In this document: piece after piece, positions 13,827 to 39,797 of the stretch | Numbering within the stretch: the stretch's first letter is position 1 | Layout: each line of letters starts with the position of its first letter | IMG/VR virus record: IMGVR_UViG_3300028920_000081 | Location: 1-56,366 of that record | Source: a virus | Taxonomy: Duplodnaviria; Caudoviricetes | Strand: one strand, 5' to 3' | DNA: 56,366 bases | Position numbers and translations under genes: made by a program | Notes under the pieces: model-generated | The model's input: only the letters and a program-made list of their open reading frames with translations | What the model was told of the DNA's origin: nothing | Database searches by the model: none

Positions 13827-13866
13827 ATTTATAAAGTCCATTATACATAGGATTATATAATGGATA
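13827..13866 (+). promoter_or_regulatory. 40-bp TATA + palindromic operator + ATG, copy 1 (exact inverted copy at 39758-39797)
   Basis: ATTTATAAAGTCCATTATACATAGGATTATATAATGGATA; arms TCCATTATA/TATAATGGA with 10-nt spacer. Confidence 0.9.
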
Positions 13867-14540
13867 CATTAATTGTTGGTCGTGGGGAGATTGGTAAATC
13901 TCTTTATTCTGTTTTAAAGGATTCTTATAATGTTAATATAGTGGACATTAGTGATACTAGTGAGATGCTTCCAGGAATAATGCATATTTGTTTTCCTTAT
14001 TCTGAAAGATTTGTAGAACAAGTTAAAGCATATCAAAAATATTATGAACCTACATATACAATAATTCATTCTACTGTTCCTGTTGGAGTATCTAAGAAAT
14101 GTAATGCAATTCATTCTCCTTGCGTCGGGATACACCCTCATTTAGCAAAGAGTCTGAAAACTTTTACTAAGTTTCTTGGAGGAGAAAAAGCTAGTGAAGT
14201 TGCTCAATATTTTAGAAGGGCTGGAATTAATATTTATTTATTTGATAAGTCGGAAACAACAGAATTAATGAAAGTTCTTTCTACAAGTTTTTATGGATTG
14301 CTAATAGAATGGACTAAGGAAGTTAAAAGACAATGCGAAAAATATGATGTTCCTTTTGAAGCATGGACTTTATGGACTAATAATTATAACAGAGGATATA
14401 ATCTTCTTGGGTACCCAGAATATACCAGACCAAATTTAATTCCTATAAAAACTAAGATTGGTGGGCATTGCATTATTCCTAATTTAGATTTTTTAGAAGG
14501 AACTTTTTTTAAATTAATTAAGGAGTTGAATAATGGTTAA
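13860..14540 (+). CDS. Nucleotide-sugar (UDP-glucose/GDP-mannose-type) dehydrogenase-like protein, lacking C-terminal domain
   Basis: IVGRGEIG, IIHSTVPVG, ETTELMK, IGGHCI (catalytic Cys). Confidence 0.8.
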   Translation: MDTLIVGRGEIGKSLYSVLKDSYNVNIVDISDTSEMLPGIMHICFPYSERFVEQVKAYQKYYEPTYTIIHSTVPVGVSKKCNAIHSPCVGIHPHLAKSLKTFTKFLGGEKASEVAQYFRRAGINIYLFDKSETTELMKVLSTSFYGLLIEWTKEVKRQCEKYDVPFEAWTLWTNNYNRGYNLLGYPEYTRPNLIPIKTKIGGHCIIPNLDFLEGTFFKLIKELNNG

Positions 14541-15600
14541 ATTTAATTGGAGGCAAAAAGATAATTATGTTTTTCTTCAGAATAAAGATATTGAAATCCA
14601 CTTTGAAGTTCCAAATAATTTTAAATTAAATGATACCCATCCAACTTTATTAAGATTAGTTGAATATTTAGTCTTTGGTCCTTTTGAGAAAGAGGTTTTT
14701 AAAAGAAGTGATATTCTTAAATGGAAGAAAAGAGTATTTAAAAAAACAGGAGATATTGCTCTTTCATGGAGTACTGGAAAGGACTCTACTGCTGCAATGT
14801 TAGTTCTCCCAGAAAATACTTTATTATTTTATCATCAAAGAGATGAATATCTTGGAGGTTCACTAGACCAAGATAACGCATTTAGATTTATAAATCATAT
14901 TAAAGGAAAAAAGAGATTATTTGTTTCTAAATCTAATCAAGAAAAAGTTAGAATGTTGCATGGAAAAGAAAGGGGTTTTTCTACACCCTTTAGTTGTGTT
15001 GCTGGTCTTGTTTTATTAGCTGATCATTTTAAATTAAATTATATCGCTACTGGGACTATGTTAGATTCTACTTTTATTGAAAAAGGATGTAAATATAGAG
15101 ATTTAAAAGAATTTTGGAGTAGATGGGGGCTTATTTTTGGTAGAGCTGGTTTAAAGCTTGTGCTTCCTGTTGGAAATATTTCAGAGGTTTTAACAAGCAA
15201 GATAGTTTCTATGAGTGAATATGATGAATATTCTTTTTCTTGTATAAGAGGGAATAATGGAAAGGCTTGTGGGAAATGTTATAAATGTTTTAGAAAAAAT
15301 CTTTTAGATGGAAAGGAAGTGATTTATTCTTCAAATGCAGATAGAGCTCTTTATCATTCAGATCATTTACATCAAGGAGATGCTTTAATTTGGGCGTATC
15401 AAAGGAGTAATTTAAAAATTCCTAGATTAGAAGAATATAGAAATCTTGATTTGTCTTTTTTGGAAAGATATTATCCTCTTGGGAATCATTTAATTCCAGA
15501 AAAATATAGATCTTTTGTATTGGAAAAATTTAAAGAATATGATATTAAACCAATGAATAAGGAGGATATTAAGAAACTCAAAAAAATAGATATAAAATGA
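14533..15600 (+). CDS. PP-loop (adenine nucleotide alpha-hydrolase, QueC/DUF6395-like) protein
   Basis: ALSWSTGKDSTAA PP-loop; SCIR...CGKCYKCFRK Zn motif. Confidence 0.65.
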   Translation: MVKFNWRQKDNYVFLQNKDIEIHFEVPNNFKLNDTHPTLLRLVEYLVFGPFEKEVFKRSDILKWKKRVFKKTGDIALSWSTGKDSTAAMLVLPENTLLFYHQRDEYLGGSLDQDNAFRFINHIKGKKRLFVSKSNQEKVRMLHGKERGFSTPFSCVAGLVLLADHFKLNYIATGTMLDSTFIEKGCKYRDLKEFWSRWGLIFGRAGLKLVLPVGNISEVLTSKIVSMSEYDEYSFSCIRGNNGKACGKCYKCFRKNLLDGKEVIYSSNADRALYHSDHLHQGDALIWAYQRSNLKIPRLEEYRNLDLSFLERYYPLGNHLIPEKYRSFVLEKFKEYDIKPMNKEDIKKLKKIDIK

Positions 15601-16511
15601 TAAAAGTTTTTTTAATTGCTACTGGTTATTCTGATAATTTTAATCATGTATTTGGTGGAAGTCCAATGGAATATTTGTCTCTCAAAACTGCTTTTGATAG
15701 GGAAAAAGATTATATCTTTGAAGTTATGCCTCAATCAAAATTTGATTTTGAAGTAGTAAAGAGGAAAAGAGAAGAAGGTTATATTATCCATTGTGAATCT
15801 TGGACTTGCCTATGTAAATTATATAAGGAAAATTTTATTCCAGATGTTTTAGGTCCAACAATTCAATCTCCTTTTAAAAATGAACAAAGATTACAAAGTT
15901 TAAAGGATATAAATTTTCCTATTGATAATTACTTTTTATCTACAGTTATTAGAAATAATTCTGCAGAAGAAAGATCTTATCCAGAAATGGCCAAAAAAAT
16001 TAAGTATATTCACTTGGGGGTTGATACTGATAAGCTTAAACCTTCTAATAATGAAAAAAAATTAATTCTTTGGGCAGGAGATTCTTCTCGTTCTTGTAAG
16101 AATTTTGAATTAATGAAAGAAATAATGAAGATTACTAAACTTCCAAAACCTTATGAATTTAAGATATTATCTCAGTATAATGTATTAGATTATTGGAATA
16201 TCCTTAATCAAACAAAGATAGTTATTAATACAAGCAAATGGGAAAGCTTTTGTTTTGCTATGTTTGAAGCAGAATCTAAAGGAGTTCCAGTTATTTATAA
16301 AAAAGGCTTACATGGAAATGTTCATAAAGACAATCATATACAAGTAGAAAATACTCCAGAAGCATATAGGGACAAAATATTAGAATTATTAAATAATGAA
16401 GAATTATATAAAAAAGAAAGCAAATATGCCAGAGATTATACTATTAAAAATTCAAGTTATGAGATGATGGTTAAAACTTTTGGGGATATTTATAAGGGGA
16501 TTAAAAAATGA
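15597..16511 (+). CDS. Glycosyltransferase, GT-B/GT4-like
   Basis: LGVDTDKLKP, TSKWESFCFAMFEAESKGVPVI (Ex7E). Confidence 0.85.
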   Translation: MIKVFLIATGYSDNFNHVFGGSPMEYLSLKTAFDREKDYIFEVMPQSKFDFEVVKRKREEGYIIHCESWTCLCKLYKENFIPDVLGPTIQSPFKNEQRLQSLKDINFPIDNYFLSTVIRNNSAEERSYPEMAKKIKYIHLGVDTDKLKPSNNEKKLILWAGDSSRSCKNFELMKEIMKITKLPKPYEFKILSQYNVLDYWNILNQTKIVINTSKWESFCFAMFEAESKGVPVIYKKGLHGNVHKDNHIQVENTPEAYRDKILELLNNEELYKKESKYARDYTIKNSSYEMMVKTFGDIYKGIKK

Positions 16512-17200
16512 TAGTTTTTTTTAGAGATGATGATGTAGATGAAGTTAATCCTCAATTAACTAATTTGGTTAAGATGTTTGCAGAGGAAAAAGTTCCTATT
16601 AATTTAGAAGTTGTTCCTGGGAGAGTTGGAATTAGTACAACGCCAATAAATAATTTAAAGAATTTTTTTAATAAATATAAAGATTTTATAGAGGTTCATC
16701 AACATGGATTTAATCATTTTGAATATGCTCCAAGAAATGAATTTCCTGATGAGAGGATAAATTTAGTGGTTAGTGAAGAAATTAAGGCAGGAAAGATATT
16801 TTTAGAAACTTATTTCAAGGAATTTTTTTATCCTGCATTTACTCCCCCCTGGCATAGAATAGGAAAATTTCATATCCCAGTAATAGAAAAATTAGGCTTT
16901 AAGATAATTTCTGCAGGATTTAATTTAAATCATAAACTAAAAGATTTATCTGTTTATACTGACCTCTCTATATTTGATAATAAACTTAAAAAAAGTAGAT
17001 TTGCTACAAAAGAAGAATTAATTGAAAAGTTTGAAAAACTTAAGAAAGAAAAATCTTCTGAAATGATAGGATTTTATCTTCACCATAAGTTCTATAAAAC
17101 TCCGGAATCTATAGAACCTATAAGAGAATTTATTAAATATTTAAAAGAAAAGGAGGTAAAAATTAAAACATTTAGTCAAATATGGGAGCTTCACAAATAA
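16508..17200 (+). CDS. Polysaccharide deacetylase (NodB/CE4-like)
   Basis: FFRDDDV, HQHGFNH, FTPPWHR, YLHH. Confidence 0.85.
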   Translation: MIVFFRDDDVDEVNPQLTNLVKMFAEEKVPINLEVVPGRVGISTTPINNLKNFFNKYKDFIEVHQHGFNHFEYAPRNEFPDERINLVVSEEIKAGKIFLETYFKEFFYPAFTPPWHRIGKFHIPVIEKLGFKIISAGFNLNHKLKDLSVYTDLSIFDNKLKKSRFATKEELIEKFEKLKKEKSSEMIGFYLHHKFYKTPESIEPIREFIKYLKEKEVKIKTFSQIWELHK

Positions 17201-17673
17201 GTTACGTTCCAGCATTATGGGATATTGCAAATAGTGGATTTAAACCTAATAAGGTTTTAGAATTAGGTTGTGGTTGTAGTTCTTTCATGCTTAGATGGTT
17301 ATTTGAAAAGTCAAAATTACATATAATAGATGATAATTCCATTTGGTTTAATTGTACTGAAAATATGGGGGGATATTCAGCAGATTTTAGAAAATTAGCT
17401 AGAACCAAGCAGGATTTTTTAGACGGAATATTACAATTTGGAAAAATGGATTTGATCTTTGTAGATTGTGGACGTAGAGGGGATTATTCAGATAAATGGA
17501 GAAGTGATTTTTTGAAATTAATTAGGGAGAAAAAAATATTAAATCCAGAAGGGTTGATAATTTTACATGATGCAACTCGTCCTGAATATCAAGAAGAATG
17601 TAAAAATTGGGAATGTGATAAAAAGAAAGAGGAGGATACTTACATTTTAAAATGGCCTTTGAACCAAAAATAG
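17182..17673 (+). CDS. Class I SAM-dependent methyltransferase
   Basis: VLELGCGCSS, DLIFVD, GLIILHDA. Confidence 0.85.
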   Translation: MGASQISYVPALWDIANSGFKPNKVLELGCGCSSFMLRWLFEKSKLHIIDDNSIWFNCTENMGGYSADFRKLARTKQDFLDGILQFGKMDLIFVDCGRRGDYSDKWRSDFLKLIREKKILNPEGLIILHDATRPEYQEECKNWECDKKKEEDTYILKWPLNQK

Positions 17674-18485
17674 ATTTTGTAATTTCAGTAAGGGATAGAG
17701 ACAATAAAAGAATACAGATATGTGTAAATAGTCTTTTATCTAATATTACAAATAAGATATATGTTGTGGACTATGGTTCTAAAAAACCTATTAAGGGTTT
17801 AAAAAATTGTAAAGTAATAAGAGTTGATACTAAAAATAGATGGAACAAATGCCATGCTTTAAATATAGGAATAAAAAAATGCAAATCTTCCTATATTGGA
17901 ACAGTTGATTGTGATATGGTTATTGGGAATTGTTTTATGAAAAAAGTAAAGGAACATTTAAAGGGAGATGTTTTTCTTTTTACTCGTTCTGTTGCTAGGA
18001 TTGCTCCAGATCTTTTAGATTGGGGATTAGATAGAGAAAAGCTTATTAGACTTTCTTCTCCTTGGTCTGAAACAAAACTTCCGAGTTTGCATGCTGCTGT
18101 TGGAGGAATACAAATATTTCCAAAATGGTGGATTTTTAGAATAAGAGGATATGATGAAAATCTTACTTATTGGGGGGGAATGGATAATGATATATATGAA
18201 AGAGCATTTAGAACAGAATTGATTATGATTGATATTAATGAAATAATCTTTCATCAAGAACATAAGAATGTTAAAGAACAGAATTTAACTTCTAAAAAAG
18301 AGCAGGAAACTGCTTTATCTGAAAGACAAAAAAGAAGAATATATCTTATGTATAAATGGACTAAAAATATTAATGTTGGACCTAAAACATGGGGTGCTCC
18401 AACTAAACCTCAACAAAATCAAATAAATATTAATTTTCAAAATGGCAAAAAGAAAAAAGATACTGTTAGCAATAATAAGCAATAG
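17652..18485 (+). CDS. Glycosyltransferase GT2 with GT7C-like C-terminus
   Basis: YVVDYGS, LNIGIK, TVDCD, GYDENLTYWGGMDND. Confidence 0.9.
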   Translation: MAFEPKIDFVISVRDRDNKRIQICVNSLLSNITNKIYVVDYGSKKPIKGLKNCKVIRVDTKNRWNKCHALNIGIKKCKSSYIGTVDCDMVIGNCFMKKVKEHLKGDVFLFTRSVARIAPDLLDWGLDREKLIRLSSPWSETKLPSLHAAVGGIQIFPKWWIFRIRGYDENLTYWGGMDNDIYERAFRTELIMIDINEIIFHQEHKNVKEQNLTSKKEQETALSERQKRRIYLMYKWTKNINVGPKTWGAPTKPQQNQININFQNGKKKKDTVSNNKQ

Positions 18486-19077
18486 AAAATATTATCCTGC
18501 ATATTTTGTTAGGAGTGTTTTTGCAATAGCAAATCATACAAGACAATTTCATGACTTGGATATACAAACTTTTGAATCAGTTGAAGTTCAGCAAATGAGA
18601 AATAACGCATGCCATTTTGCTATTCATCATAAATATGATTATCTCTTTATGTTAGATGATGATATGAATTATCCTCAAAAATGTATAGTTGAATTAATGA
18701 AGCATAAGAAAGAATTTGTTGTTGGGAGTGCAACTCAAAGACGACCTCCATTCTATCCTACTCAATATAAAAATTTAAATGCAAAAAGATTTAAGGATAA
18801 AGTTAATAGAGTTTTTATAACAAAAGAAGATAAAAAATTAATAGAAGTTGATGGCTCTGGAGTTGTTGGAGCTCTAATAAAGGTTGATTCTCTTAAAAAA
18901 TTAAAGGCACCTTATTTTAGATTAGTTTGGAAGAAAAATGGATTTGATATAATTGGGAGTGATGTTTATTTTTGTAAGGAATGGAGAAAAACAGGGAAAA
19001 AAATTTATTTAGACCCTAAAATAAATTATGATCACGAAATAACTGCTTTTTCTAATAGTTTTGGAATTGTAACATAA
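18442..19077 (+). CDS. Glycosyltransferase, GT-A/GT2-like
   Basis: DYLFMLDDDM, GSDVYFC...DPKINYDH; paralogue of 10096..10734. Confidence 0.85.
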   Translation: MAKRKKILLAIISNRKYYPAYFVRSVFAIANHTRQFHDLDIQTFESVEVQQMRNNACHFAIHHKYDYLFMLDDDMNYPQKCIVELMKHKKEFVVGSATQRRPPFYPTQYKNLNAKRFKDKVNRVFITKEDKKLIEVDGSGVVGALIKVDSLKKLKAPYFRLVWKKNGFDIIGSDVYFCKEWRKTGKKIYLDPKINYDHEITAFSNSFGIVT

Positions 19078-19118
19078 GATTTATATAGTTTATTGTATTA
19101 TCTATTTTGGAGGTTAAT

Positions 19119-19277
19119 ATGACAGTATCTGTTACTCAAAAAGGAAAATTGGTGAGGCTTTCTGGAACTATCGCTGAAGTTCTAACTGAAATAGACGACC
19201 AGAATTTAGTTCAAGTTGTTTATTGGTCTGACAATGGAACAACTGCTACAGCATTATGCAGTAGAATAAAATTTTAA
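19119..19277 (+). CDS. Small hypothetical protein, 52 aa (not in ORF track)
   Basis: TATA (AAGATTTATATA 19076-19087) and GGAGG upstream; MTVSVTQKGKLVRLSG...SRIKF. Confidence 0.65.
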   Translation: MTVSVTQKGKLVRLSGTIAEVLTEIDDQNLVQVVYWSDNGTTATALCSRIKF

Positions 19278-19278
19278 T

Positions 19279-20286
19279 ATGGCTTATACAACTTATTCGA
19301 AAGTTTATTTATTGTCCAATTTAACAACTTCTGATGTTTCTGCGGATGATGTAACTGATATAATTTCTGAAGTTACTAAGGAATTAAATAATGATATTAA
19401 CATTCGAGTCTCTAGGGAATATGTAGATTACATAGACCAAACAAGACAAAATAAAAGAGATGGTTCTAACACCACTTATTACATTACAAATTGGAGAAAA
19501 TATCTTGCAGATATGAATAATGATGGAAGAATAACTCCCGAAGATATTGCAGTATATAAGATTGATTCTGATGGTAATGAAACTAAGGTTGCTGTTAAAA
19601 CAATAGCAGGATGTTCTTCTTATCAAAAATGGGGATTTAGTGCAAAAAAAACTAAAAACTCTCCAACTGGTTTAACAAATGATTCTACAGCTTATACAGC
19701 TTCTATATCTGTTGATGGAACTACAAATTCTATTTCAGTTACTGGTTCTGATGCTCAAACACTTTCTACTTTAATTGACGAAATAAATTCCGATTTAAGT
19801 GGCGCAACTGCTAGTTGGGATACAACTGGAAATGGGTATATCAAAATAACTTCTAATTCTTCTGGGGAGGAAACTTCAGAATCTTCTATTGCTATTACTG
19901 ATACTGACTTATTTTCTTCACTTACTAATATTAATGCTTCTGTTGAAACTGCTGTTACTGGGGTTAGCAATAAGGATTATCCTGGACAATTTGTTCTTGA
20001 AACTGCGGTTGATGCAGATTACAAATTATATGTTACTTATGAATATTGTAATAGAGATCCTTCTGAACCAGATGAAAAAATTAATTTAGCTTGTACATTT
20101 CTTGCTATAGCATACTGTTATGCTAAAGAAAATATTGGTAGAGCTCCACAAGTTGCTTTTGGGAATACTAAACTTTTCAGACACATGCCCTCTTTTGAAC
20201 ATTATTATCAAAGATATAAAAATATGGTAAGTCAAGTTAACCAAGAAGGTTTATTTGATTTTACTGAATCTAAAATCAAGATATAA
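19279..20286 (+). CDS. Head-tail adaptor with an inserted S/T-rich beta domain
   Basis: MAYTTYSKV start and helical C-terminus typical of adaptors; position after the head genes. Confidence 0.6.
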   Translation: MAYTTYSKVYLLSNLTTSDVSADDVTDIISEVTKELNNDINIRVSREYVDYIDQTRQNKRDGSNTTYYITNWRKYLADMNNDGRITPEDIAVYKIDSDGNETKVAVKTIAGCSSYQKWGFSAKKTKNSPTGLTNDSTAYTASISVDGTTNSISVTGSDAQTLSTLIDEINSDLSGATASWDTTGNGYIKITSNSSGEETSESSIAITDTDLFSSLTNINASVETAVTGVSNKDYPGQFVLETAVDADYKLYVTYEYCNRDPSEPDEKINLACTFLAIAYCYAKENIGRAPQVAFGNTKLFRHMPSFEHYYQRYKNMVSQVNQEGLFDFTESKIKI

Positions 20287-20516: not shown

Positions 20517-20873
20517 ATGGTTAATTTAGATGCACAACATATAACTAATGAAATTGATTATTATGGAAGTACTGTTACATTAAGAACAGTTACAGATGGT
20601 TCATATTCTAAATGGGGTGATGCTTCAGAAACAACCTCTGATGAAACAAGTTTAAAAGCCATGGTTCAGGTTCTTGATCAATCTGATGATTTAGTTCAAG
20701 AAGGAATTTTCCAAACAGGAGATAAAATATTCTGGTTTAAATCTACTCAAACAGGCCTAAATAGAGGAAATAGAATACAACATAATTCTAAATGGTATGA
20801 GATAGATGAAGTAATTGAACATGATGTTGCTGATTCTTCTTATGTAATAGAAATAAGAACCAAAAAAATATGA
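20517..20873 (+). CDS. Head closure (stopper) protein
   Basis: YGSTVTLRTV...GNRIQHNSKWYEI; position. Confidence 0.7.
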   Translation: MVNLDAQHITNEIDYYGSTVTLRTVTDGSYSKWGDASETTSDETSLKAMVQVLDQSDDLVQEGIFQTGDKIFWFKSTQTGLNRGNRIQHNSKWYEIDEVIEHDVADSSYVIEIRTKKI

Positions 20874-21457
20874 TACACTTTGTCCATGTTCCTAAGACTG
20901 GGGGGACTACGTTTATTACTAATCTTAAAAAGAATAAAGTTAAATTTGAAGCAGGGCATAATGTTTGGTGTGAGAAGAAAAATTTTGGTAAGTATATCAC
21001 TTTCTTAAGACATCCCCTTTATAGAACGTTATCACAAGCTAAATGGGAGATTGAAAAATCTCATATAGTTGATTCTGATTTTTTAGACTGGTTTGTTTTC
21101 AGGCAGCATAATTTTCAAGTAAAGTTTTTACGTAATAGATTTTTTAAAATTCCAGAATCTAAGGAAGTAACTAAAACTGATGTTAATAATATTAAGAAAT
21201 TTCTAAAGAAGAATTTTTTATTTGTTTTTCTTACTGAAGAATTAGATATTAGTCTCCCTAAATTGCTGAAGTTTTTTGATTTAAAACTTTATAAAGAAAA
21301 GGCTAACGTATCTAAAAGAGATATTAGAGTCTCCGAATCTACTATTAAACATATTATAGAGAGCAATAAATTAGATTTTGAATTATATGAGTGGGTTAGA
21401 AAAATATATAAAGATGGTATGCTTAATAATAGTAACTTCAGGGGAAGCAATTTATAG
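20870..21457 (+). CDS. Sulfotransferase family protein
   Basis: PAPS-binding motifs HVPKTGGTT and FLRHPLYRTLS; NKLDFELYE. Confidence 0.85.
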   Translation: MIHFVHVPKTGGTTFITNLKKNKVKFEAGHNVWCEKKNFGKYITFLRHPLYRTLSQAKWEIEKSHIVDSDFLDWFVFRQHNFQVKFLRNRFFKIPESKEVTKTDVNNIKKFLKKNFLFVFLTEELDISLPKLLKFFDLKLYKEKANVSKRDIRVSESTIKHIIESNKLDFELYEWVRKIYKDGMLNNSNFRGSNL

Positions 21458-22472: not shown

Positions 22473-23078
22473 ATGGTATCAAGACCTGATACATGGAGTG
22501 AAACAGCAAAAGTAGCAATAGCTGCTCAAAGTGGAAGTGATGTTCATTTCGATACAATCACAGAAACTGTTGACGTAGATATTGGAAATAAAGATTTCGA
22601 TGTAATAGCAACTCTTGGCGGAGGAAGATTAGTAAAATTTACCCCCCAAGAACCAACAACAATTACTCTGGAAGCATATCCATTAGATGCAGGAACTGAC
22701 TCTGGGACTACTGGAGAAGGTTTTTTTGATTTAATGAATAGTTCAGATACATCACAACCAGTTGTTGTGAGTGCAGATAGAGAAAGAAACAAATATAGAA
22801 TTGCTATTATGTGGACTACTGATACTGCTAGCACTACATATGCGGAAAGTCAAGTTGCTTCCCCAACTCAAGCTTGTATGAGAGTTGTGGCTGCAGATGG
22901 ATTTTTTACTAGCGTTAAGCCAAGTTATACAGATGGTGTTTTGAAGTTTACTATAACTTACAAAGTTCCACCGTTTGATAAATCTGGAAATGCTAATTTA
23001 AAGATTGAATCTATAGATGGAAGTGCAACTGCGACATTGACAGCTCTAGCTTCATATACTTCTACGACTAAGTGGTGA
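22473..23078 (+). CDS. Major tail tube protein
   Basis: Position, about 200 aa, S/T/A-rich beta protein, AGGAGG SD. Confidence 0.65.
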   Translation: MVSRPDTWSETAKVAIAAQSGSDVHFDTITETVDVDIGNKDFDVIATLGGGRLVKFTPQEPTTITLEAYPLDAGTDSGTTGEGFFDLMNSSDTSQPVVVSADRERNKYRIAIMWTTDTASTTYAESQVASPTQACMRVVAADGFFTSVKPSYTDGVLKFTITYKVPPFDKSGNANLKIESIDGSATATLTALASYTSTTKW

Positions 23079-29900: not shown

Positions 29901-32900
29901 TATTGGGTTTATTCTAATACTACTACATATGAACTTTCAGATGTAACGGAAAATAATACAATTAATTGGACAGATCTTTCTAATGGAGAATATTTTTATA
30001 ATGTTACAATCTGTGATAGTTTTGATTTATGTAATTCAACAGAGACAAGATACATAACTTTAGATACAACTGAGCCAATGATTTATTTAGAAACAGAAAA
30101 CAATACAATAGAATATATGAATAGAACCCCCACTTTTTCTTTTAATGTAAGTGATAACCTAAATGATACTTTAGAATGTTTACTTTATTTAAATAATGGT
30201 TCAGATATTGCTGCAGGAATTAATAGTTCTGTTCTAAATGCCACAAGCACATCAATTACTTCAAACACAACTTTAGCAAATGGAAATTATACTTGGTGGG
30301 TTAATTGTTCAGATGGATTACAAGAAAATAAATCAGTAGATTATAGAATAAATATTTCAGTAGTTCCTCCTAGTGTAACTTTAAACTCTCCTGAAAATGC
30401 TTATAATTCATCAAGTTCAAGTATAACTTTTAATTGCTCTGCTACATCACTTAGTGGAAATTTAACTAATATGTCTTTAATTTTAAATGGAGTTTATAAT
30501 GAAAGTATTGATTTAGAAGAAGGTATTTGTTATCAAGAAAGTGTTAATGTTTCAGATCAAACAGGAATTGATGGAAATTGTGGATTGAATTATTCTGGTA
30601 ATTGGTCATCAACTGCTACTGGAACTATTCCTGTAAGTGCAGTTTTTGATGGTTTATGGGTTAGTAGTTATAATCGTGCTCCATTTACAGATTATTATCA
30701 TTATATTAATTATTCTATTCCTTCTTCAAGTTTTGGGGCTATTTGGAAAAGTTCAATGCGAGTTTATCCATATAACCAACCAATATCTAATGAAACTATA
30801 GATGTAAATTGTCTTAGTGGGGATTTTCTTCAAATAAGAATTTCTCAATTAGGAAATTCTACATTATATGGACAGTGTTATAATGGAACTGATTGGATTG
30901 GAGCTTATAATTCAATGTCTTCAAGTCAATTAGGAAATACTAATATTGATGAAGAAGCAGTTTATTGGAATGTTTCCTTTGGGAGTAATTATACATTAAC
31001 TGCCACAAAGACTTTAAGTGATGGATTAAATCAAAATTGGACTTGCGAAGCATGTAGTGCTATTGGTTGCACAAAGGGAACATCAAGGAATATTTCTGTT
31101 GATACTCTTTACCCTGGAATTAATTTTGATGACCCTACCCCCGACAATAATAGTGCTTATGGTGCAAGTTATTTAGATATTGCTGTTAGAATTAATGAAT
31201 CTAATACGAACAATGTAACTTATAGGATTTATAATGATACTGGAGTAATTTGGAATGAAACTACTTATTTACAAGATTCTAAATTAGATAATGTAACAAT
31301 TAATTGGACTCCTCTTGCAGAAGATACTTACCTATATAATGTAACTGCTTGTGATGATTTTGATCAATGTAATTCTACTGGAACTAGATATGTTGTAATT
31401 GATAATACTTATCCTCTTATTGATTATGAAGATAATTCAGATCCTATAAATGAATCTGGAGATTTTGATGTTAAGGATTGGGTTTTTGTTAATGTAAGTG
31501 TAACAGAAACTAATGAGAAAAATATAACTTTTACTCTTTGGGATGTAAGTGGAATAGAAAATCAAACAACCTATACTACTGCTGTTAGAGATATTAACTG
31601 GACTGATTTGCCAGAATCTATGTGGTTTTGGAATGTAACTGTATGTGATGACGCTTCTCTTTGCAATACAACTTCTACCAGACACTATGGTGTTGAATTA
31701 GTTAATTTATCTTTTGAAGGAACTTATGATAATGTTACTGCAGAATTAGGAGGTAATGTTTCTATTTCTGCTATAAATACAAATAATACAGTTTGTATTG
31801 ATATAGACCACCCAGATTATGGTTTAAATTATTCTTGTGCGTCTCAAAATAATACAATAAATTTAGATATTGATTATTTTAGAAAAACAACCTTTGCTAA
31901 TGGAAATGAATATCAAAATAGAACTTTTTCAGGAGATAATATTTCTATAAATATTACTGGACATGAATACGATGAAATAGATAATTTAACTGTTAATATA
32001 TCCAGTGATGATAGTCTTAAAGATATTATATTTTACAATACAAATTCTTCTTCAATAGATAGAATATTTTATGGATATTTGATTGGAAGTAATATTTATC
32101 AAAATGTAACTTATGAAGATGAAAGCTCTAAGAATTTTACTTATGTTGGAGAGGAAAGCAAAGAAACTTATCTTGAGATGGATGGAAGCTCTACTTTAAT
32201 TAATTTATCTTTTAATGTTACTGGATTTGAATATGGATTTAGTACAGTAGATTGGTTAAATAATTCCTTTGAAAATATAGATAGAGATACTCCAAAAACT
32301 ACAGCACATTTATCTGGAGGATTTATTACTGCTCAAGGAACAGACCCAGTAAGTATGACTTATGATGATTTTGACGATGATTCAATAAGTGATATTTTGT
32401 GGAGTTTTGGTTTAGCTAATGGAGCAGGGAATACAGACCCTGGAGACCCAGACGAAGGATATGATTATACTATTGCTAACTTTGAAGGAGGAGATGAGAT
32501 TTCTCTTTATGTTACTGGATTTGATGAGGATTGGTCAGGAGATGAAAGAGGAACAGATACTCTATCTAATACAATGTGGAGTAATATAAGCCATATGAAT
32601 ATTTGGACTGCTGAAGGAATACTTTTGCAATTTGATTATTCTTTTACAGCTCATGAAGATGAAGAATATGGAGATTGTATCTTCTATAACCAAGTACAAT
32701 TAGGAGATAAAACAGCTTGGCAAAGTCAAAGAGATAGATGTAAAGATAGAGGGGAATTAACTTATGATTGTGATGATCATTCCTTAACTTTAGAGCCAAT
32801 TATTTTAAATATAACTAAGAATTTAAACAATAGTTGGAATGTTTCTATCTCTGGTGTTGAACTAACTTATGGAGATTATGTGGATAGAGATGATAGTGAT

Positions 32901-34325
32901 TGTGGAACAAGATACATAGTTTATAATTATTCTAATGGTTCTAAACATACTTATTTTACAGGGTATGATGATTCTGGTGGTGATGCTTGTGAGGAAACTT
33001 TAGATTCTTACGAAACTCTTTCAAATACTACCATGATTTCTGATTTAGATTGGAACATATCAGACCAATTATATTTCAAACAATTTATGCAGGGAAGCTG
33101 GGATAATGAAGATGGAACTGGATGTGAATATTATTCTAATCCTTGGTGGAATATATCTTATGTTAATCAAACACTACTTAATAGAAGTAATGGAACTGTT
33201 TATTCTTATAGTATGTATAGTTCAGAGCAAATTCCAAAAGCAACTTTAAATGTAAGCAACTATACTAATTCTACTCTAACTGGAGATAATATAACTCTCT
33301 ATATGTCTGCAGATAATGTTAATTATGAATCAGTTATAGAAGCAACAGAGCATACATTTACTAATTCTGGAGGAGAATTAACTTATAAAATTGAGTTTAA
33401 CATTACAAATACAGGATATGTTAATAGCACCCCTATGATTTATAATATAAATATTTCTACTCCTCAAGATAATGCGAGTAATGTAGATTTTGATTTTGGT
33501 GATGATGGAAATGTTGATTATACAATCTCTGGAGATTTAACAAATACACAAACAATAAATATCTCTAGTGCAACATTATCTTCTGTTTTTTCTGGAATAG
33601 CAGATTATGGAGATTATGGTTATTATGTTCCTTTAATCATTTCTTCTGATACTCCAGGAATAATACAAATAAGTGCAATTAATTTAACATATAATCCTAA
33701 TCCTGTCTCATTAAATGTTACAAAAATATATGATTTTATGAATACCTATGGAGCAAATGAAACTAATTTCACTATTAATCTTTCATCAAATTCTACTGGA
33801 ACTATTAACTTAACTGATTTAAGATATGATTATGCAGGAGGAAATGATACAATAGTTATTAGTGCCTCTAATGATGACGATTCTCAAATTGTTACTAGAA
33901 ATATAACCTATTATTATTCTAAATGGGATTATAATTTTGTTCCTTCTGGAATAAACTTTTTAGAATTTTCTCCTAGAAAACCAACTTCAGATAATGTTAC
34001 TCCTTATGGACAAAGTTCAAGCACACCTATATTAAATATAACAAATTATGGTTATGGGGGAAGGGTGGCAGATTTATCTGTTTATGTAAATGATTCTCTT
34101 GAATGTGTTAATTTAACAATAAGTACAGATAATAATAAATCTAATGGAGTAATGGTTAATGAATCTTGGAATAATTTAAGCCAGGATTTAGATTATTTAG
34201 ATTCTGTTGATATTTGGATGTGGGCTGACTTTGAATGTGATTATTCTACTTGGAATTATTTTAATCCATATATTTATTTTAGACAATGTGCTAATAATTC
34301 CCTTTGTTCCGAGGAGGTTTTATAA
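26907..34325 (+). CDS. Giant 2472-aa membrane-anchored/secreted adhesin: DUF2341, LamG, Cys-containing Ig-like repeats, two CYQE modules
   Basis: N-terminal TM (LVGGLLLLVILTASVYLVF); SWWNSSF...DFADLRF...YWIE...IYMYYGN (DUF2341); LamG; repeated PxITLxxP...YxWxxxxCD; very many N-x-S/T sequons. Confidence 0.85.
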   Translation: MVTKKLVGGLLLLVILTASVYLVFDNKYKILVENTRTQYFVNENSSWVLAATEYVNLFDGTTKMRASSRDINYSFDNYYTTIVRTSEWKDNITTIQTYVFENNATDIEEVPIKNTLECINCVGKIVHYEIRDILYEGETEVISSPFEFGHNMKISWQDGAYYSKVFQQKVASDKIIIRYRPEDNYETYEVRLFDPSWWNSSFLYKKEITINETSGEDLINFSVLMNVSYEENMLNDFADLRFVNSTDDVELGYWIENKSDGAYAWIWVNVNLTASSNNTIYMYYGNNTEVESNSNENKTFWFYYYDDSTHQSSSHHVVEPVTEVNVTLWDEWEYKIAHLTSYKSGTTWSQYAGAGFDYDGTSYRDGDDVLLFGSQSCDAGGIYWEDDPSHSGCRFGNPDGEIASEGTYTHPSTYNASIGDVHELTIFQWIDTSGKTAQIRLTQFILKGYASSDPIVYFGEEEELSGDAPNITLNAPEDTYNSSSQTIVFNCTGTDDQLVQNISLILNSTYNETLVRSYLFTPSNYLEDIYFYYSLNDSTNSIIDYSGNGINGTNSGGQLNSQGYVDDGIYFSGGYSQYINGTSTPLISPKNGSVVFWVNITNRSDENYLFLSSGNLGNLYMRAGLTSSGNLKLNFYDYDSTPSHLEKFEVDFIPNLNEWYQIGYSWGDAGRKIYVNGTLIDSDLSYLGNGGSSDHDPGLYIGSLYMIAPQQKSINGTIDDVILWNRSLSDEEFSLIYKEYNNIKNETTLTLITTKTLDDGAYNWTCEACDNDSQCTNATPRQVNIDTTYPLIEFIAYTEDNNSYVSQDWILANVSMTEINPKNVTYRLWKDITYCYQESVNVSNQTGIDGNCGLNYSGNYSFEDYYFYINYTKPEGVFNAKWLVKHGTLGIYNITILPECFNDLIELRIISNGTDDGANSVFWSRPQCYNTTHWIDIGSLSNGTVTSFSLNYDNNWSKMYDGDWNTYATFITDLGATQIWDNLVTGDAFRSTVYEEGMYWVYSNTTTYELSDVTENNTINWTDLSNGEYFYNVTICDSFDLCNSTETRYITLDTTEPMIYLETENNTIEYMNRTPTFSFNVSDNLNDTLECLLYLNNGSDIAAGINSSVLNATSTSITSNTTLANGNYTWWVNCSDGLQENKSVDYRINISVVPPSVTLNSPENAYNSSSSSITFNCSATSLSGNLTNMSLILNGVYNESIDLEEGICYQESVNVSDQTGIDGNCGLNYSGNWSSTATGTIPVSAVFDGLWVSSYNRAPFTDYYHYINYSIPSSSFGAIWKSSMRVYPYNQPISNETIDVNCLSGDFLQIRISQLGNSTLYGQCYNGTDWIGAYNSMSSSQLGNTNIDEEAVYWNVSFGSNYTLTATKTLSDGLNQNWTCEACSAIGCTKGTSRNISVDTLYPGINFDDPTPDNNSAYGASYLDIAVRINESNTNNVTYRIYNDTGVIWNETTYLQDSKLDNVTINWTPLAEDTYLYNVTACDDFDQCNSTGTRYVVIDNTYPLIDYEDNSDPINESGDFDVKDWVFVNVSVTETNEKNITFTLWDVSGIENQTTYTTAVRDINWTDLPESMWFWNVTVCDDASLCNTTSTRHYGVELVNLSFEGTYDNVTAELGGNVSISAINTNNTVCIDIDHPDYGLNYSCASQNNTINLDIDYFRKTTFANGNEYQNRTFSGDNISINITGHEYDEIDNLTVNISSDDSLKDIIFYNTNSSSIDRIFYGYLIGSNIYQNVTYEDESSKNFTYVGEESKETYLEMDGSSTLINLSFNVTGFEYGFSTVDWLNNSFENIDRDTPKTTAHLSGGFITAQGTDPVSMTYDDFDDDSISDILWSFGLANGAGNTDPGDPDEGYDYTIANFEGGDEISLYVTGFDEDWSGDERGTDTLSNTMWSNISHMNIWTAEGILLQFDYSFTAHEDEEYGDCIFYNQVQLGDKTAWQSQRDRCKDRGELTYDCDDHSLTLEPIILNITKNLNNSWNVSISGVELTYGDYVDRDDSDCGTRYIVYNYSNGSKHTYFTGYDDSGGDACEETLDSYETLSNTTMISDLDWNISDQLYFKQFMQGSWDNEDGTGCEYYSNPWWNISYVNQTLLNRSNGTVYSYSMYSSEQIPKATLNVSNYTNSTLTGDNITLYMSADNVNYESVIEATEHTFTNSGGELTYKIEFNITNTGYVNSTPMIYNINISTPQDNASNVDFDFGDDGNVDYTISGDLTNTQTINISSATLSSVFSGIADYGDYGYYVPLIISSDTPGIIQISAINLTYNPNPVSLNVTKIYDFMNTYGANETNFTINLSSNSTGTINLTDLRYDYAGGNDTIVISASNDDDSQIVTRNITYYYSKWDYNFVPSGINFLEFSPRKPTSDNVTPYGQSSSTPILNITNYGYGGRVADLSVYVNDSLECVNLTISTDNNKSNGVMVNESWNNLSQDLDYLDSVDIWMWADFECDYSTWNYFNPYIYFRQCANNSLCSEEVL
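29408..29484 (+). repeat. 77-bp direct repeat, copy 1 (CYQESVNVSNQTGIDGNCGLNYSGN)
   Basis: 75/77 identical to 30527-30603. Confidence 0.9.
30527..30603 (+). repeat. 77-bp direct repeat, copy 2
   Basis: Differs from copy 1 by one C/T and one A/G. Confidence 0.9.
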
Positions 34326-36071: not shown

Positions 36072-36073
36072 AA

Positions 36074-36104: not shown

Positions 36105-36186
36105 AGAAAAGTATTTAAATTACTAATTCTATTTCTAATTGTCTGCATTAGCGGACTTAATTTGGTTAAATAAACTGGAGGTGTAA

Positions 36187-36510: not shown

Positions 36511-36543
36511 AATAAATAATTTTCTTTTCTTTTTTTAATTTTT

Positions 36544-36831
36544 TTATAGAACTAATATAAAGAATATTGTTAGGGCTGTGCTTGTTATTGTTGCAGGAAT
36601 AATGTCCCTCCAATCTGTTAAAACAGACCAAATTCTATACTCAAATATATAAGATAATTTTGTATGATACAATTTATTATCTCTAACGATAAAATCAGAT
36701 GTTAATAAAAACCATTTTAATTTCTTAAAAGTATCATATTCTGGACTTGAACTAATCCAGCATATATTATCTATACACATATTAAATATTGTGAATAAAT
36801 AACAGCATATCCAAAGTAATATAGGGTTCAT
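36544..36831 (-). CDS. Membrane protein
   Basis: Hydrophobic N- and C-terminal segments. Confidence 0.55.
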   Translation of the reverse strand: MNPILLWICCYLFTIFNMCIDNICWISSSPEYDTFKKLKWFLLTSDFIVRDNKLYHTKLSYIFEYRIWSVLTDWRDIIPATITSTALTIFFILVL

Positions 36832-37196
36832 ATTAACTCCAAATTATCTATATCTTTCTGAGTTTTAATTTTTATAATTGTTACTTCTGAAGGATATTTT
36901 TTTATTTTCTCACTAAGTTCTTTATCTGTTTCTGTTTCCAATATTTCATAACCAGTCCAAATTCCATCTTTAAATGCTAAAATATCAAATCTAATCCCAG
37001 TGTCAAAGATTGGCTCAGTCCATACTTCATATCCAGCTTTTCTTAACTTATACCATACAAGGAATTTTTTATTAATATGATTCCATGTTTCAGACATATA
37101 ACAATAGAAGAATCCTTCTTTATTTCCAGATAATGAATTAAATCTTATTTGGTTTAATATACTTCTTTTTTCCATTTGTTCTTTAACCTTATTCAT
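36828..37196 (-). CDS. PD-(D/E)xK-like nuclease-fold protein
   Basis: H...K...YEVWTE...RFDIL...GYEIL. Confidence 0.6.
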   Translation of the reverse strand: MNKVKEQMEKRSILNQIRFNSLSGNKEGFFYCYMSETWNHINKKFLVWYKLRKAGYEVWTEPIFDTGIRFDILAFKDGIWTGYEILETETDKELSEKIKKYPSEVTIIKIKTQKDIDNLELI

Positions 37197-37510
37197 TCTT
37201 CTTCCTCCTCTTTAATAATATCCTTTTTTACTATCTTAATTATTTTATTAAGGTTTATAGCTACGTGAATATTTTGATTTTTAATCTTATGTGTTTTTGG
37301 GTCTATATGAAGAAATATCTGCTTTCTTGCGTTAAATTCTTTTGAAATTTCTAATAGATGATTATAGAAATTATCCCTATCTATTTCTTTATCAAACAAA
37401 CAATCCCCTCCTGCATATTCTTCCATATGAATATAAACAGAAAAATATTTAGTGTAAACTTTTGGCTTAATTTCTTTTTTAGTAAAGTAGTTTTTTATCT
37501 TTTCTAACAT
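37193..37510 (-). CDS. Hypothetical protein
   Basis: Overlapping operon ORF. Confidence 0.55.
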   Translation of the reverse strand: MLEKIKNYFTKKEIKPKVYTKYFSVYIHMEEYAGGDCLFDKEIDRDNFYNHLLEISKEFNARKQIFLHIDPKTHKIKNQNIHVAINLNKIIKIVKKDIIKEEEEE

Positions 37511-37737
37511 TTTAATTCTCCTTTTTTCTTTAATTGTTCAAATGCTTCTTTTATGTGTTTGCATGTGCTTTTGTTTTTTATATTATTCTCGCTAAATCTA
37601 AATGCACTTCCAAAAGGACAATCACAATTCCAGGATATTAATTCTTTATCACATATTACTATCCTTTGGTTGTAATCCTTACTTCCTTTGATATTAAAAT
37701 AAAAAACAAAACAATTATTTTTAGCTATTTTTTCCAT
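37504..37737 (-). CDS. SWIM Zn-finger protein
   Basis: WNCDCP...TCKHI. Confidence 0.8.
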   Translation of the reverse strand: MEKIAKNNCFVFYFNIKGSKDYNQRIVICDKELISWNCDCPFGSAFRFSENNIKNKSTCKHIKEAFEQLKKKGELKC

Positions 37738-37998
37738 TTACATATATTTCTCAGTTTTAGTTCTTATCTGTTTCTCATATACCTTTATGTTTGAATCCAG
37801 AATCTTTTGATTATTCTGTAATTTTCTTAAAAGGTTTCTTGCTCTTTTCATTGGAAATTCTCTCTTTATTTCTTCTTCAATTTTTCTAATTTCATTTTCT
37901 GTATCAAAAAGTTGCAATTCTAATTCTTCCATAGCTTGTCTTCTCTTTTTAATATCTTCGTCTGTTAGCTTCCTTGATTTTAATTCTGGTTTAGCCAT
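37738..37998 (-). CDS. Coiled-coil hypothetical protein
   Basis: Heptad-like E/K/L pattern. Confidence 0.55.
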   Translation of the reverse strand: MAKPELKSRKLTDEDIKKRRQAMEELELQLFDTENEIRKIEEEIKREFPMKRARNLLRKLQNNQKILDSNIKVYEKQIRTKTEKYM

Positions 37999-38293
37999 TT
38001 TTTACTCCCATAACTATTTCTATTGTAGAAATAGGTATTTTTTTCCCATTCTTATCCAATTCTACTGAGCCAATAAGAACTTTTTTAATTTCCTTGTTGA
38101 TATTATCAAAGCCTTTCTTAACTACTACTTGAGAAACATCTACTGCTCTACCAACCCATTTCCCTCTAGCTTTCATAATCACTTCTTTTTGTCCATTTTT
38201 GAATTGCATATTAACTGCAGTAACGTAATTCATAAAATTTTTCATTCCAACAAGGACAACGTTTCCTAAATCTTTTGGTTCTTTTTTATCCAT
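37991..38293 (-). CDS. alba: Alba DNA/RNA-binding protein
   Basis: NVVLVGMKNFMNYVTAV...EVIMKARGKWVGRAVDV...IGS...ISTIEIVM; start at ATG 38293 behind GGAGG. Confidence 0.9.
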   Translation of the reverse strand: MDKKEPKDLGNVVLVGMKNFMNYVTAVNMQFKNGQKEVIMKARGKWVGRAVDVSQVVVKKGFDNINKEIKKVLIGSVELDKNGKKIPISTIEIVMGVKNG

Positions 38294-38303
38294 TTTTCCT
38301 CCA

Positions 38304-38453
38304 TTATTTATTTGATTTCTTCTTCCACGAAGAAAAGCATACAGCAAGTCTTTGTTTTTTATCAGGGTATTCTTTTTTCATTATTGAATTACTCATACAT
38401 CTTGCTACAAATTCCCCTTCAATTTCTCCTTTACTTGGTTTTGGTATTGGCAT
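38304..38453 (-). CDS. 49-aa conserved phage mini-domain protein (not in ORF track)
   Basis: MPIPKPSKGEIEGEFVARCMSNSIMKKEYPDKKQRLAVCFSSWKKKSNK; GGAGG upstream. Confidence 0.75.
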   Translation of the reverse strand: MPIPKPSKGEIEGEFVARCMSNSIMKKEYPDKKQRLAVCFSSWKKKSNK

Positions 38454-38563
38454 TTTTTTCCTCCAATTTATTTATTTTTATAACTAACTCATTTATTTTC
38501 TTTCTTATAACTTCTAATTTTTCATATAAATTTTGCTGCTTTCCAGAGTGTATAGTTATTTCT

Positions 38564-39142
38564 TTAATCATTATCTGTAGAATATTGTATTGGTTTAAGT
38601 ATTTTCACAAATCCCTTTTCTCTTAGATATTCCAAACTCTTAGATAAATGTGCATTTATCTGAATCGGGTTAATTAAATAATTCTTTTGTTGAACTTGTA
38701 TCTTTTCCTGTTCTTGCTTCAAATAATTTAATTGATTAACCACTTCTCTTGATAGATTGATAAGTAATGGAATATATTCTTTAGCGTATTTTAAATGTAA
38801 TTGAGGCATATCTTCTTGACTTAATTCTTCTCTTAATTTTTCCATCTCGTCCATAAGATTATCTATTACCTTACAGGCTTTGACATATCTTTTATGTATC
38901 ATTTGATAATCTTTATATGATTGATCATCAACTCTTTTATCATTTAATATTGCCTTAGAAGTCTTTCTGAAATATGCTTTTTGAATAGTTGCATAGACAT
39001 AATCTGTTCCAAATTCTTTATTAAATTTTTCAGTAGTCTTTTTCCAGTTTAATTTTTCTTTAGTCCTTAATTCAACTATTCTTCTTTCTTGTTCATCTGT
39101 AAATTCTACCTTTCTAAATCTATTATCTTTTCTTTTATCCAT
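38564..39142 (-). CDS. HTH + coiled-coil protein, candidate terminase small subunit
   Basis: N-terminal HTH (FTDEQERRIVELR...FNKEFG), long helices, C-terminal NPIQIN strand. Confidence 0.45.
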   Translation of the reverse strand: MDKRKDNRFRKVEFTDEQERRIVELRTKEKLNWKKTTEKFNKEFGTDYVYATIQKAYFRKTSKAILNDKRVDDQSYKDYQMIHKRYVKACKVIDNLMDEMEKLREELSQEDMPQLHLKYAKEYIPLLINLSREVVNQLNYLKQEQEKIQVQQKNYLINPIQINAHLSKSLEYLREKGFVKILKPIQYSTDND

Positions 39143-39147
39143 TCTAT

Positions 39148-39594
39148 TTATTCTAATAATTTGTTTTTGGTATTTTTATAAGTTTCTACAAGTGCAGTAA
39201 CATTACTTTTTAAAGAACCAACTTCAATCTTACCTGCTACAACTAAATCTTTAACATAAGAAATAAGCATTCCAGCAACTCTACTCGCTTCTGCTTCTTT
39301 TCCATAAGAAGAATTTTTTGTAGGTTCTCCTGGTTTTTCTACTGGAACATGTGGTGTTTCTGTAGGAAGATCTCCTTCATATTTTATCATAGATTGTATA
39401 TTATTATATTGGCCATTAATTTCATAAACTACTTGAACAGCATCTCCTATATTAAAATTTAAATTATCAAAAGTACTAAATATTTTTCCATTTATTTTAA
39501 AAGCAGTTCTTGTATAAGGAGTTTTATCTGAACTTTTAATTCCAGATTTAGAATCCTTTGAAAGAATTTTTCCAATTATTTCAGGCATTTGCAA
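39148..39594 (-). CDS. OB-fold (SSB-like) protein
   Basis: FKINGKIFSTF...IGDAVQVVYE...YNNI; paralogue of 9651..10103. Confidence 0.6.
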   Translation of the reverse strand: MQMPEIIGKILSKDSKSGIKSSDKTPYTRTAFKINGKIFSTFDNLNFNIGDAVQVVYEINGQYNNIQSMIKYEGDLPTETPHVPVEKPGEPTKNSSYGKEAEASRVAGMLISYVKDLVVAGKIEVGSLKSNVTALVETYKNTKNKLLE

Positions 39595-39764
39595 TAAGTA
39601 ATCCTCCCTAAAACTTCTATTTGAACTTTATTGTCTCTTTCTAGGTCCTTTAATTCAGAACGAACATAATACCAGTTAGAACCTATTCCCTTAGCAATTT
39701 CATTAATTGTCTTTAAACTATCTTGTTTTTTTAGAAAATCTAATATCTTATCTTTTATATCCAT
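39576..39764 (-). CDS. Winged-HTH transcription regulator
   Basis: KILDFLK...TINEIAKGIGSNWYYVRSELKDLERDNKV. Confidence 0.8.
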   Translation of the reverse strand: MDIKDKILDFLKKQDSLKTINEIAKGIGSNWYYVRSELKDLERDNKVQIEVLGRITYCKCLK

Positions 39765-39797
39765 TATATAATCCTATGTATAATGGACTTTATAAAT
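39758..39797 (-). promoter_or_regulatory. 40-bp TATA + palindromic operator + ATG, copy 2
   Basis: Exact reverse complement of 13827-13866. Confidence 0.9.

Follow-up and report, generated by a model that had tools for sequence, protein, structure and literature searches.

A promoter with a putative palindromic operator, duplicated in inverted orientation, precedes a winged-helix gene and a glycan cassette in an uncultivated sediment virus

The window analysed here is an entire IMG/VR virus record (IMGVR_UViG_3300028920_000081; 56,366 bp, linear, 65% complete by the CheckV estimate, G+C 26-34%). It contains a 40-bp sequence, ATTTATAAAGTCCATTATACATAGGATTATATAATGGATA, exactly twice, at 13827-13866 on the plus strand and at 39758-39797 on the minus strand, with 40 of 40 positions identical; the first copy precedes a cassette of glycan genes and the second a gene for a small winged helix-turn-helix (wHTH) protein. 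Over its first 36.5 kb the plus strand carries a structural module of tailed-virus type in the canonical terminase-portal-capsid-tail order, with genes for the large terminase subunit (TerL), the portal, a four-fold Laminin_G_3 protein, head closure, a gp10-like protein, the tape measure, a 2472-aa fibre and a hub-like tail protein. On the minus strand, from 50.3 to 36.5 kb, lie mostly small genes, including those for Ku, a GGDEF protein, two wHTH-like proteins and Alba. The two copies and the genes directly behind them are as follows:

13822..13866, plus strand: copy 1 of the promoter-operator (from the sequence and a repeat search)
13822-13826, plus strand: BRE-like (transcription factor B recognition element) A-rich tract of copy 1, AAAAG
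13828-13835, plus strand: TATA box of copy 1, TTTATAAA, then one base before the left arm
13837-13845, plus strand: left arm of the palindrome in copy 1, TCCATTATA
Between the arms of copy 1: 10-nt spacer, CATAGGATTA
13856-13864, plus strand: right arm of the palindrome in copy 1, TATAATGGA, with the ATG (13860) inside it
39758..39802, minus strand: copy 2 of the promoter-operator, 40 nt identical (39797 to 39758), with BRE-like tract AAAAC
Within copy 2, minus strand: TATA box 39796-39789; arms 39787-39779 and 39768-39760; ATG 39764
39576..39764, minus strand: 62-aa wHTH protein, candidate regulator, first gene after copy 2
13860..19077, plus strand: glycan cassette of seven overlapping or abutting open reading frames (ORFs), absent from the relative G001 described below

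No further match to the 40-mer was found in the window with up to three mismatches allowed, and 100 of 100 dinucleotide-preserving shuffles gave 0 matches; none is expected by chance. In the repeat search the arms grow to 45 nt (13822-13866 and 39758-39802), of which 44 are identical, the sole mismatch being G versus C in the A-rich tract, 5 nt upstream of the TATA box. Similarity breaks off abruptly on both sides, upstream at the A-tract and downstream after ATGGATA, which makes up the first two codons and one extra base of two unrelated genes. The exact inverted 40-bp duplication claimed in the original prediction was therefore confirmed, and the repeat is real and highly non-random.

Both copies have the anatomy of a promoter, AAAAG/C-ATTTATAAAG, in which a BRE-like tract and TATA box are followed by the palindrome TCCATTATA-N10-TATAATGGA. 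This is a perfect 9-N10-9 repeat in both copies and fills the approximately 24 nt from TATA box to ATG. In archaeal promoters the centre of the 8-bp TATA box (TTTAWATA-like) lies about 26-27 bp before the transcription start, and a purine-rich BRE directly precedes the box. Here the TATA-box centre lies 28.5 nt from the ATG, so that with the usual archaeal spacing transcription is predicted to start 1-3 nt before the ATG and the mRNA to be leaderless; we infer such a leaderless start for both copies. The start codons are backed by homologues, as wHTH relatives align from the same Met and, for the first glycan gene, a relative has its start in the corresponding place. A sigma-70 promoter reading was dropped, no site of that type having been found in either copy. 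The promoter anatomy, with TATA box, palindrome and start codon all within the repeat, was thus borne out, and the core of the repeat also recurs before other gene blocks and in G001.

We surveyed gene starts with a gap of at least 25 nt upstream, scanning for AAGATTTATAAA-like cores with up to two mismatches. The core AAGATTTAWAWA recurs at a near-fixed distance before the first genes of blocks at 8660, 10799, 13860, 39764 and 50355, with the ATG at +33 to +38; for 8660 it stands at +38 from the core start. At least four gene-block starts outside the repeat have such a core 33-44 nt upstream, without the palindrome. The elements of this kind, with the genes that they adjoin, include:

10763..10774, plus strand: promoter core AAGATTTAAATA, with ATG 10799 at +36; precedes a 397-aa gene and the major capsid gene
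11989-13095, plus strand: HK97-type major capsid protein
19076..19088, plus strand: core of a restart promoter, AAGATTTATATAG, at the right-hand edge of the insertion described below, then the Shine-Dalgarno sequence GGAGGT, then ATG 19120 at +44
50356..50434 (to 50600 including downstream), both strands: divergent control region with two back-to-back TATA cores
50390 to 50376, minus strand: core AAAAGATTTATAAAG, with ATG 50355 at +33
50422-50434, plus strand: core AATATTTATAAAG
50391-50408, between the divergent cores: perfect palindrome TGTATAAT-CT-ATTATACA

The 10799 core has the same 33 nt from ATTTA to ATG as the 40-mer and is without the palindrome. The 50355 promoter contains an exact 15-mer of copy 1 (AAAAGATTTATAAAG), and between CATA and ATGGA 16 of 19 bases agree with that copy; its length is 3 nt less, and the left arm is missing. 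The palindrome between the divergent cores and the 40-mer have the 10-mer ATTATACATA in common, which has only three exact occurrences in the window. Downstream of this control region lies a 46-aa CxxC...CxxC zinc-ribbon ORF (50589-50729, plus strand). The promoters of copy 1, copy 2 and 50355 look like one family, and since that at 50355 is without the left arm, the palindrome would be an add-on confined to the two exact copies. Judged from these comparisons, the core is the virus's general promoter and the 9-N10-9 palindrome the special part.

The palindrome has one further match, inside the gene for the 2472-aa fibre:

30860..30887, strand not applicable: third palindrome, TACATTATA-N10-TATAATGGA, with one mismatch, the same 10-nt spacing and a different spacer

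No TATA box was found at this third site. With up to three mismatches over its 18 specified bases, the palindrome has three matches in the window against 0.17 expected, and the next-best 9-N10-9 match after 30860-30887 has four mismatches. Pairs of half-sites with at most one mismatch each, taken at spacings of 0-30, occur at spacing 10 only, and are the two copies and the 30860 site. A first-order Markov simulation of 300 windows gave 0 matches at up to one mismatch and 0.013 per window at up to two. The right arm of the third site encodes part of a QCYNxTxW motif that is also present in a neighbouring repeat of the fibre protein, so that coding constraint explains part of the site; from empirical half-site counts it is probably non-random, at roughly p = 0.002-0.015. 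The same arms and spacing around a different spacer point to the arms, rather than the whole 40-mer, as the recognised unit. The fibre protein itself (26907-34325) and the protein encoded at 5870-8614 are both large and rich in Laminin_G_3/ConA-like domains; the former also has DUF2341, and its gene contains internal DNA repeats of 83 nt with 95% identity (29408-29490 and 30527-30609).

The 62-aa protein encoded directly behind copy 2 scores 26.4 bits with the Pfam FaeA-like family, against a cut-off of 20.7. Its AlphaFold2 model (predicted local distance difference test score 91.5) consists of three helices and a β-hairpin wing, and its Foldseek matches in the PDB are all small wHTH DNA binders, among them PKZ Z-alpha, PapI, ArsR/SmtB, TFE-alpha, MarR and the pNOB8 centromere-binding protein. 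The call of a wHTH protein at 39576..39764 therefore holds. The top Foldseek match was PKZ Z-alpha (4kmf; E 4e-4, 29% identity). The Z-alpha signature is a conserved Asn and Tyr in the recognition helix; in a HMMER alignment Arg35 and Lys39 of the 62-aa protein face the PKZ Asn and Tyr of ..VNRHLY.., and on this signature a Z-alpha identity was rejected. Against PF02295 the G001 homologue reaches 19.9 bits, where the cut-off is 21.

The closest homologue of the wHTH protein (P0005; 85 aa, 59% identical) is encoded on a 1.5-kb contig in ENA, and the alignment gives it a helix-3 segment, SNWYYVRSEL, identical to that of the 62-aa protein. It is annotated with a 21-aa N-terminal extension, ..KKIYKPSYISLY, before the real Met. 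Translated back into DNA, this extension would correspond to a TATA box in frame, AAR-AAR-ATH-TAY-AAR, 30 nt upstream of that Met, which suggests a conserved promoter there.

The wHTH gene would head a longer transcription unit:

36544..39594, minus strand: remaining genes of the putative copy-2 transcription unit, as far as the convergent T/A-rich stop region 36511-36543
38292 (probable start ATG) to 37991, minus strand: Alba (NCBIfam, 1.4e-20)

It contains, in order, an OB-fold-like gene (oligonucleotide/oligosaccharide-binding fold; 39148-39594), a helix-turn-helix (HTH)/coiled-coil gene (38564-39142), two small ORFs, Alba and five more small genes; several of its genes have a GGAGG Shine-Dalgarno sequence, and no obvious internal promoters or T-runs were found in it. 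Of the family calls made earlier for this unit, Alba stands on its NCBIfam match. The OB-fold call for 39148-39594 has a structural (Atlas) lead and found no sequence support in Pfam, PHROG, NCBIfam or the PDB. The description of 38564-39142 as like a small terminase (TerS) had to be given up, as the same four sources lent it no support and its structural (Atlas) lead is HTH-like; the gene at 466-843, which adjoins TerL and has a homologue beside the G001 TerL, is on its position likelier to encode the small terminase. A further DNA-binder candidate, with matches to a DUF6293_C winged helix and a phrog transcriptional regulator, lies at 40581-40841.

Relatives were sought with the operator, with single proteins and with alignments. 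In collections from which records close to that of the window may be missing, the palindrome with any spacer was found at 7 loci (viral_contigs) and 54 loci (metagenome_contigs), and none of these has the TATA box, the same spacer or flank similarity; the TATA box with the left arm matched 14 viral loci, and the match continues in none of the 14. Single-protein searches of viral_contigs with the wHTH protein or TerL gave no relatives. The wHTH protein alone had no match in a word search of 5.8 billion proteins and only five other matches among 1.84 billion representatives, and a search with the wHTH alignment returned G001 again and nothing else. Relatives were instead reached through a TerL alignment, and the 20 TerL-related virus records thus obtained were searched for the wHTH protein. 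Homologues were present in two of them, G001 and G008.

G001 (L216) is the closest long relative, a 43.9-kb record with direct terminal repeats and a TerL 56% identical to that of the window. By tblastn synteny it is collinear across the structural and wHTH modules, which have the same relative orientation. Its wHTH homologue (38% identical) is preceded by AGAAAGATTTATAAATAC, then 18 nt, then the ATG, so that the core and the leaderless geometry are kept; this promoter is 3 nt shorter and no 9-N10-9 repeat was found in it. The core AGAAAGATTTATAAA recurs many times in G001, and three exact cores have an ATG at +33, one of them directly before the wHTH homologue. That promoter and a divergent one approximately 950 bp away (18032-18051 and 18997-19016) have 20 identical nt and agree at 15 of 21 bases from core to ATG; the second drives 75-aa and 95-aa genes of no assigned function. 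In its sequence, this pair is a looser, weaker version of the duplicated-promoter design. In G008 the wHTH homologue is translationally coupled to the preceding gene and lies among homologues of the HTH-like gene and Alba, without a promoter of its own. Homologues of several genes of the copy-2 unit adjoin the wHTH homologue in both relatives. On the question of conservation, then, the core promoter is retained before the wHTH homologue of G001, and the palindrome is not kept with the wHTH gene in G001 or G008; as far as these genomes indicate, the neighbourhood of wHTH, HTH-like and Alba genes is conserved in the group and the operator is not.

The seven ORFs after copy 1, counted as six in the original prediction, encode a 226-aa protein with a Rossmann-like N-terminus, a DUF6395 protein, a glycosyltransferase of family GT1, a 230-aa protein of no assigned function, a methyltransferase, a GT2 glycosyltransferase and a GT-like phrog_1574 protein. 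They are separated from the preceding gene by one more element:

13788..13821, plus strand: T-rich tract between an 84-aa gene and copy 1

Oligo-T tracts serve as terminators in archaea, and this one is likely, from its composition and place, to be a terminator of that type insulating the cassette from the capsid operon. The whole block at 13516-19278 (5.8 kb), comprising the 84-aa gene, the T-rich tract, copy 1, the seven ORFs, the restart promoter (19076) and a 52-aa gene, appears as an insertion relative to G001. There, by tblastn synteny and the junction sequence, directly after a homologue of the H-lectin gene (window 13159-13515) come a 50-aa gene and the homologue of 19279-20286, and neither the promoter nor the T-tract was found in the junction between the H-lectin and 19279 homologues. 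The block thus shows, at the sequence level, what marks a moron: a locus-specific insertion between late genes, with its own promoter and a terminator-like tract. Most likely it is a moron-type cassette, specific to this lineage, inserted in the head-morphogenesis operon. Since a TATA promoter precedes the wHTH homologue of G001 in the same position, copy 2 would most simply be the resident and copy 1 the captured promoter. The suggestion of promoter capture is supported in that the copy-1 glycan block is missing at the collinear G001 locus.

A homologue of the first glycan gene (59% identical) is found in the viral contig L011 (432-1154), between terminase-like genes and in an unrelated context, with no such promoter found at that locus; the gene apparently passes from one virus genome to another. 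Scattered among the head and tail genes of the window are more genes of glycosyltransferase-like, sulfotransferase-like and methyltransferase type (10096-10734, 20870-21457, 23088-24011 and 23998-24486). Of these, the one beside the gene for a 201-aa tail-module protein (22473-23078; 72% identity to G001) has a counterpart in G001 too, at 60% identity. With such genes in mind, virion glycosylation may be a trait of the whole group.

The 10000-19999 stretch is present in two marine-sediment metagenome DNA runs; no RNA run is listed for the same stretch. In metagenomic protein space, 146 relatives of TerL reach E <= 1e-20, whereas identity to any deposited phage is at most 24%. Its four closest copies in species-representative genomes (47-56% identity) lie on short binned contigs of metagenome-assembled genomes, labelled archaeon (2), Methanosarcinales (1) and Dojkabacteria (1). 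Several weak family matches in the window are to families that we take to be mainly archaeal. Alba, the promoter type and the labels of the TerL relatives together make an archaeal host likely.

On balance, we lean towards the view that a leaderless promoter with an operator, resident before the wHTH gene, was copied to the inserted cassette, with putative autoregulation of the wHTH gene and co-regulation of the glycan genes. The 40-mer would then be a complete archaeal-type promoter with a built-in palindromic operator, and the 45-bp copy would have been acquired by or with the 5.8-kb moron-like glycosylation cassette. The glycan and wHTH units would fire from the same promoter and answer to the same binder of the palindrome, for which the wHTH protein is the likeliest candidate, as a repressor that would block recruitment of RNA polymerase at the start site. 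The region between TATA box and start is the classic place for archaeal repressors (PMC5569661); SvtR and F55 bind their own promoters (PMC5569661), as does Stf76, itself a wHTH (PMC4027180). A wHTH gene standing first behind the promoter, with a palindrome over the start, fits an autoregulated repressor of this kind. Binding of the palindrome by the 62-aa protein is plausible on these grounds, both its identity as the binder and the sign of the regulation being read from gene order and site position.

Several observations pull the other way. The archaeal host is probable rather than certain, with one of the four closest TerL contigs, all of them short, labelled Dojkabacteria. Part of the right arm (an AT-rich stretch, ATG and GA) is also found in the palindrome-less 50355 promoter and may be generic start context. 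In neither G001 nor G008 is the palindrome conserved alongside the wHTH gene. The half-site centres lie 19 bp apart, a wide gap for a protein of 62 aa that would bind as a compact dimer and has no obvious dimerisation domain, so that other binders stay in play, and other DNA binders are encoded nearby, at 40581-40841 (wHTH-like) and 38564-39142 (HTH-like).

The last three of these points also favour a reading in which the promoter and its duplication are as described and the palindrome is read by a host regulator or by another viral DNA binder, the wHTH gene coming first by chance. Both nearby proteins are small candidates within the same module, the second through its HTH-like lead, and the 19-bp spacing would suit a larger or tetrameric binder better. 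However, where a promoter of a viral or plasmid regulon bears an operator, the gene standing first behind it usually encodes the regulator; SvtR and F55 (PMC5569661) and Stf76 (PMC4027180), for example, bind their own promoters. We found no positive evidence for any other binder. We regard this alternative as unlikely.

Slightly less probable still is a plain copy of a strong constitutive promoter, in which the palindrome has no regulatory role and the identity reflects recency. Where no more than two copies exist, a recent origin is the simplest account of their agreement in the spacer and at other positions outside the palindrome, the right arm is partly generic start context, and no relative conserves the palindrome. 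On the other hand, a perfect 9 + 9 inverted repeat exactly between TATA box and start is unlikely to be incidental, and the third site, with the same arms and spacing around a different spacer, argues that the arms are a recognised unit.

The original prediction also raised the possibility that the inverted repeats recombine, flipping the 26-kb segment between them; two genome isomers would result. Exact inverted repeats of 40-45 bp suffice for rare homologous exchange, exchange inside the promoter would leave both operons intact, and a Ku homologue is encoded at 45201-45971. Nevertheless, the structural and wHTH modules have the same relative orientation in G001 and the assembled order is canonical. 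No serine or tyrosine recombinase domain was found among 97 ORFs searched with Pfam, 55 of them also with PHROGs, in a record that is approximately 65% complete. Short inverted repeats flank the invertible segments of Mu, P1 and Salmonella (Gin, Cin and Hin), and here too such repeats flank a segment that includes tail-fibre genes. Unlike those segments, however, this one spans 26 kb and has no recombinase gene nearby; its 9-10-9 layout does not resemble serine-invertase or tyrosine-recombinase core sites, and the third site has an unrelated spacer. The inversion thus gained no support, and we consider it very improbable.

Equally remote is a role of the palindrome in RNA, whereby a hairpin in read-through transcripts hides the AUG and only leaderless transcripts from the internal promoter are translated: copy 2 has no T-run separating it from the upstream gene, making read-through likely, and the RNA fold has a 10-bp stem enclosing the AUG, but this A/U-rich stem is no better than shuffles (z = -1.49; 15 of 200 fold as well), little read-through is expected past the T-rich terminator before copy 1, and the third site inside a coding region is left unexplained.

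Returning to the preferred reading of a resident promoter-operator copied to the glycan cassette, a bolder version of it can be drawn, which we hold to be doubtful. The cassette would be a conversion-type moron wired to the promoter of an immunity-like wHTH repressor, in a three-site regulon coupling surface glycosylation to adsorption. If so, the cell would produce regulator and glycosylation enzymes at the same time, in a carrier state or during lysogeny for instance, to remodel host-surface or virion glycans, and the same protein would also touch the intragenic site 30860-30887 in the receptor-binding fibre gene.

Three other genes of the window deserve mention. The GGDEF-domain protein (48701-49570, minus strand; Pfam E 1e-35) had no homologue that could be found in G001; a cyclic nucleotide signal may be its product, or it may serve counter-defence. 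The Ku-like DNA end-binding protein (45201-45971, minus strand; Pfam E 3e-14) is 54% identical in G001, and an RNA-ligase-family protein is encoded at 52153-52752.

The putative pair of transcription factor and operator would give a large group of uncultivated sediment viruses without genetics (146 TerL relatives) a concrete, testable regulatory system. It would also be a clean case of viral regulatory rewiring, with a 45-bp promoter-operator copied onto a new seven-gene cassette amid the capsid operon. If binding is true, the 28-bp site and the 62-aa protein would form a compact repressor-operator part for archaeal promoters.

Phage morons, as in HK97 and lambda, are autonomous promoter-gene-terminator cassettes inserted between late genes. 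The glycan block resembles them in being missing from a collinear relative, in lying between conserved head genes and in having its own promoter and a terminator-like tract; it differs in its probably archaeal setting, its TATA-type promoter and its seven genes, and in that the promoter would have been copied within the same genome instead of imported. On the regulatory side, the arrangement predicted here is like that of SvtR of Sulfolobus rod-shaped virus SIRV1 and, similarly, of AvtR and F55 (PMC5569661), small viral DNA-binding proteins that act on their own promoter and on that of a virion-related gene, combining autoregulation with control over a late or structural function. Whereas those are ribbon-helix-helix proteins with imperfect, target-specific sites, the candidate described here is a winged helix and the whole promoter is duplicated base for base. 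A parallel in fold and size is offered by Stf76, from the plasmid-virus pSSVx, a wHTH protein (approx. 60-76 aa for the two) of an archaeal mobile element with sites in its own promoter (PMC4027180), such binding being predicted for the 62-aa protein. In contrast to the arrangement proposed here, the abstract of PMC4027180 describes no second target operon with an identical promoter, and no sequence relationship between the two proteins was found, Stf76 being absent from the family and PDB matches. Set beside these systems, our preferred reading of the duplicated element is a predicted regulon of two promoters, perhaps with a third site, that is headed by a minimal winged-helix protein and combines known kinds of parts in a poorly known group of viruses.

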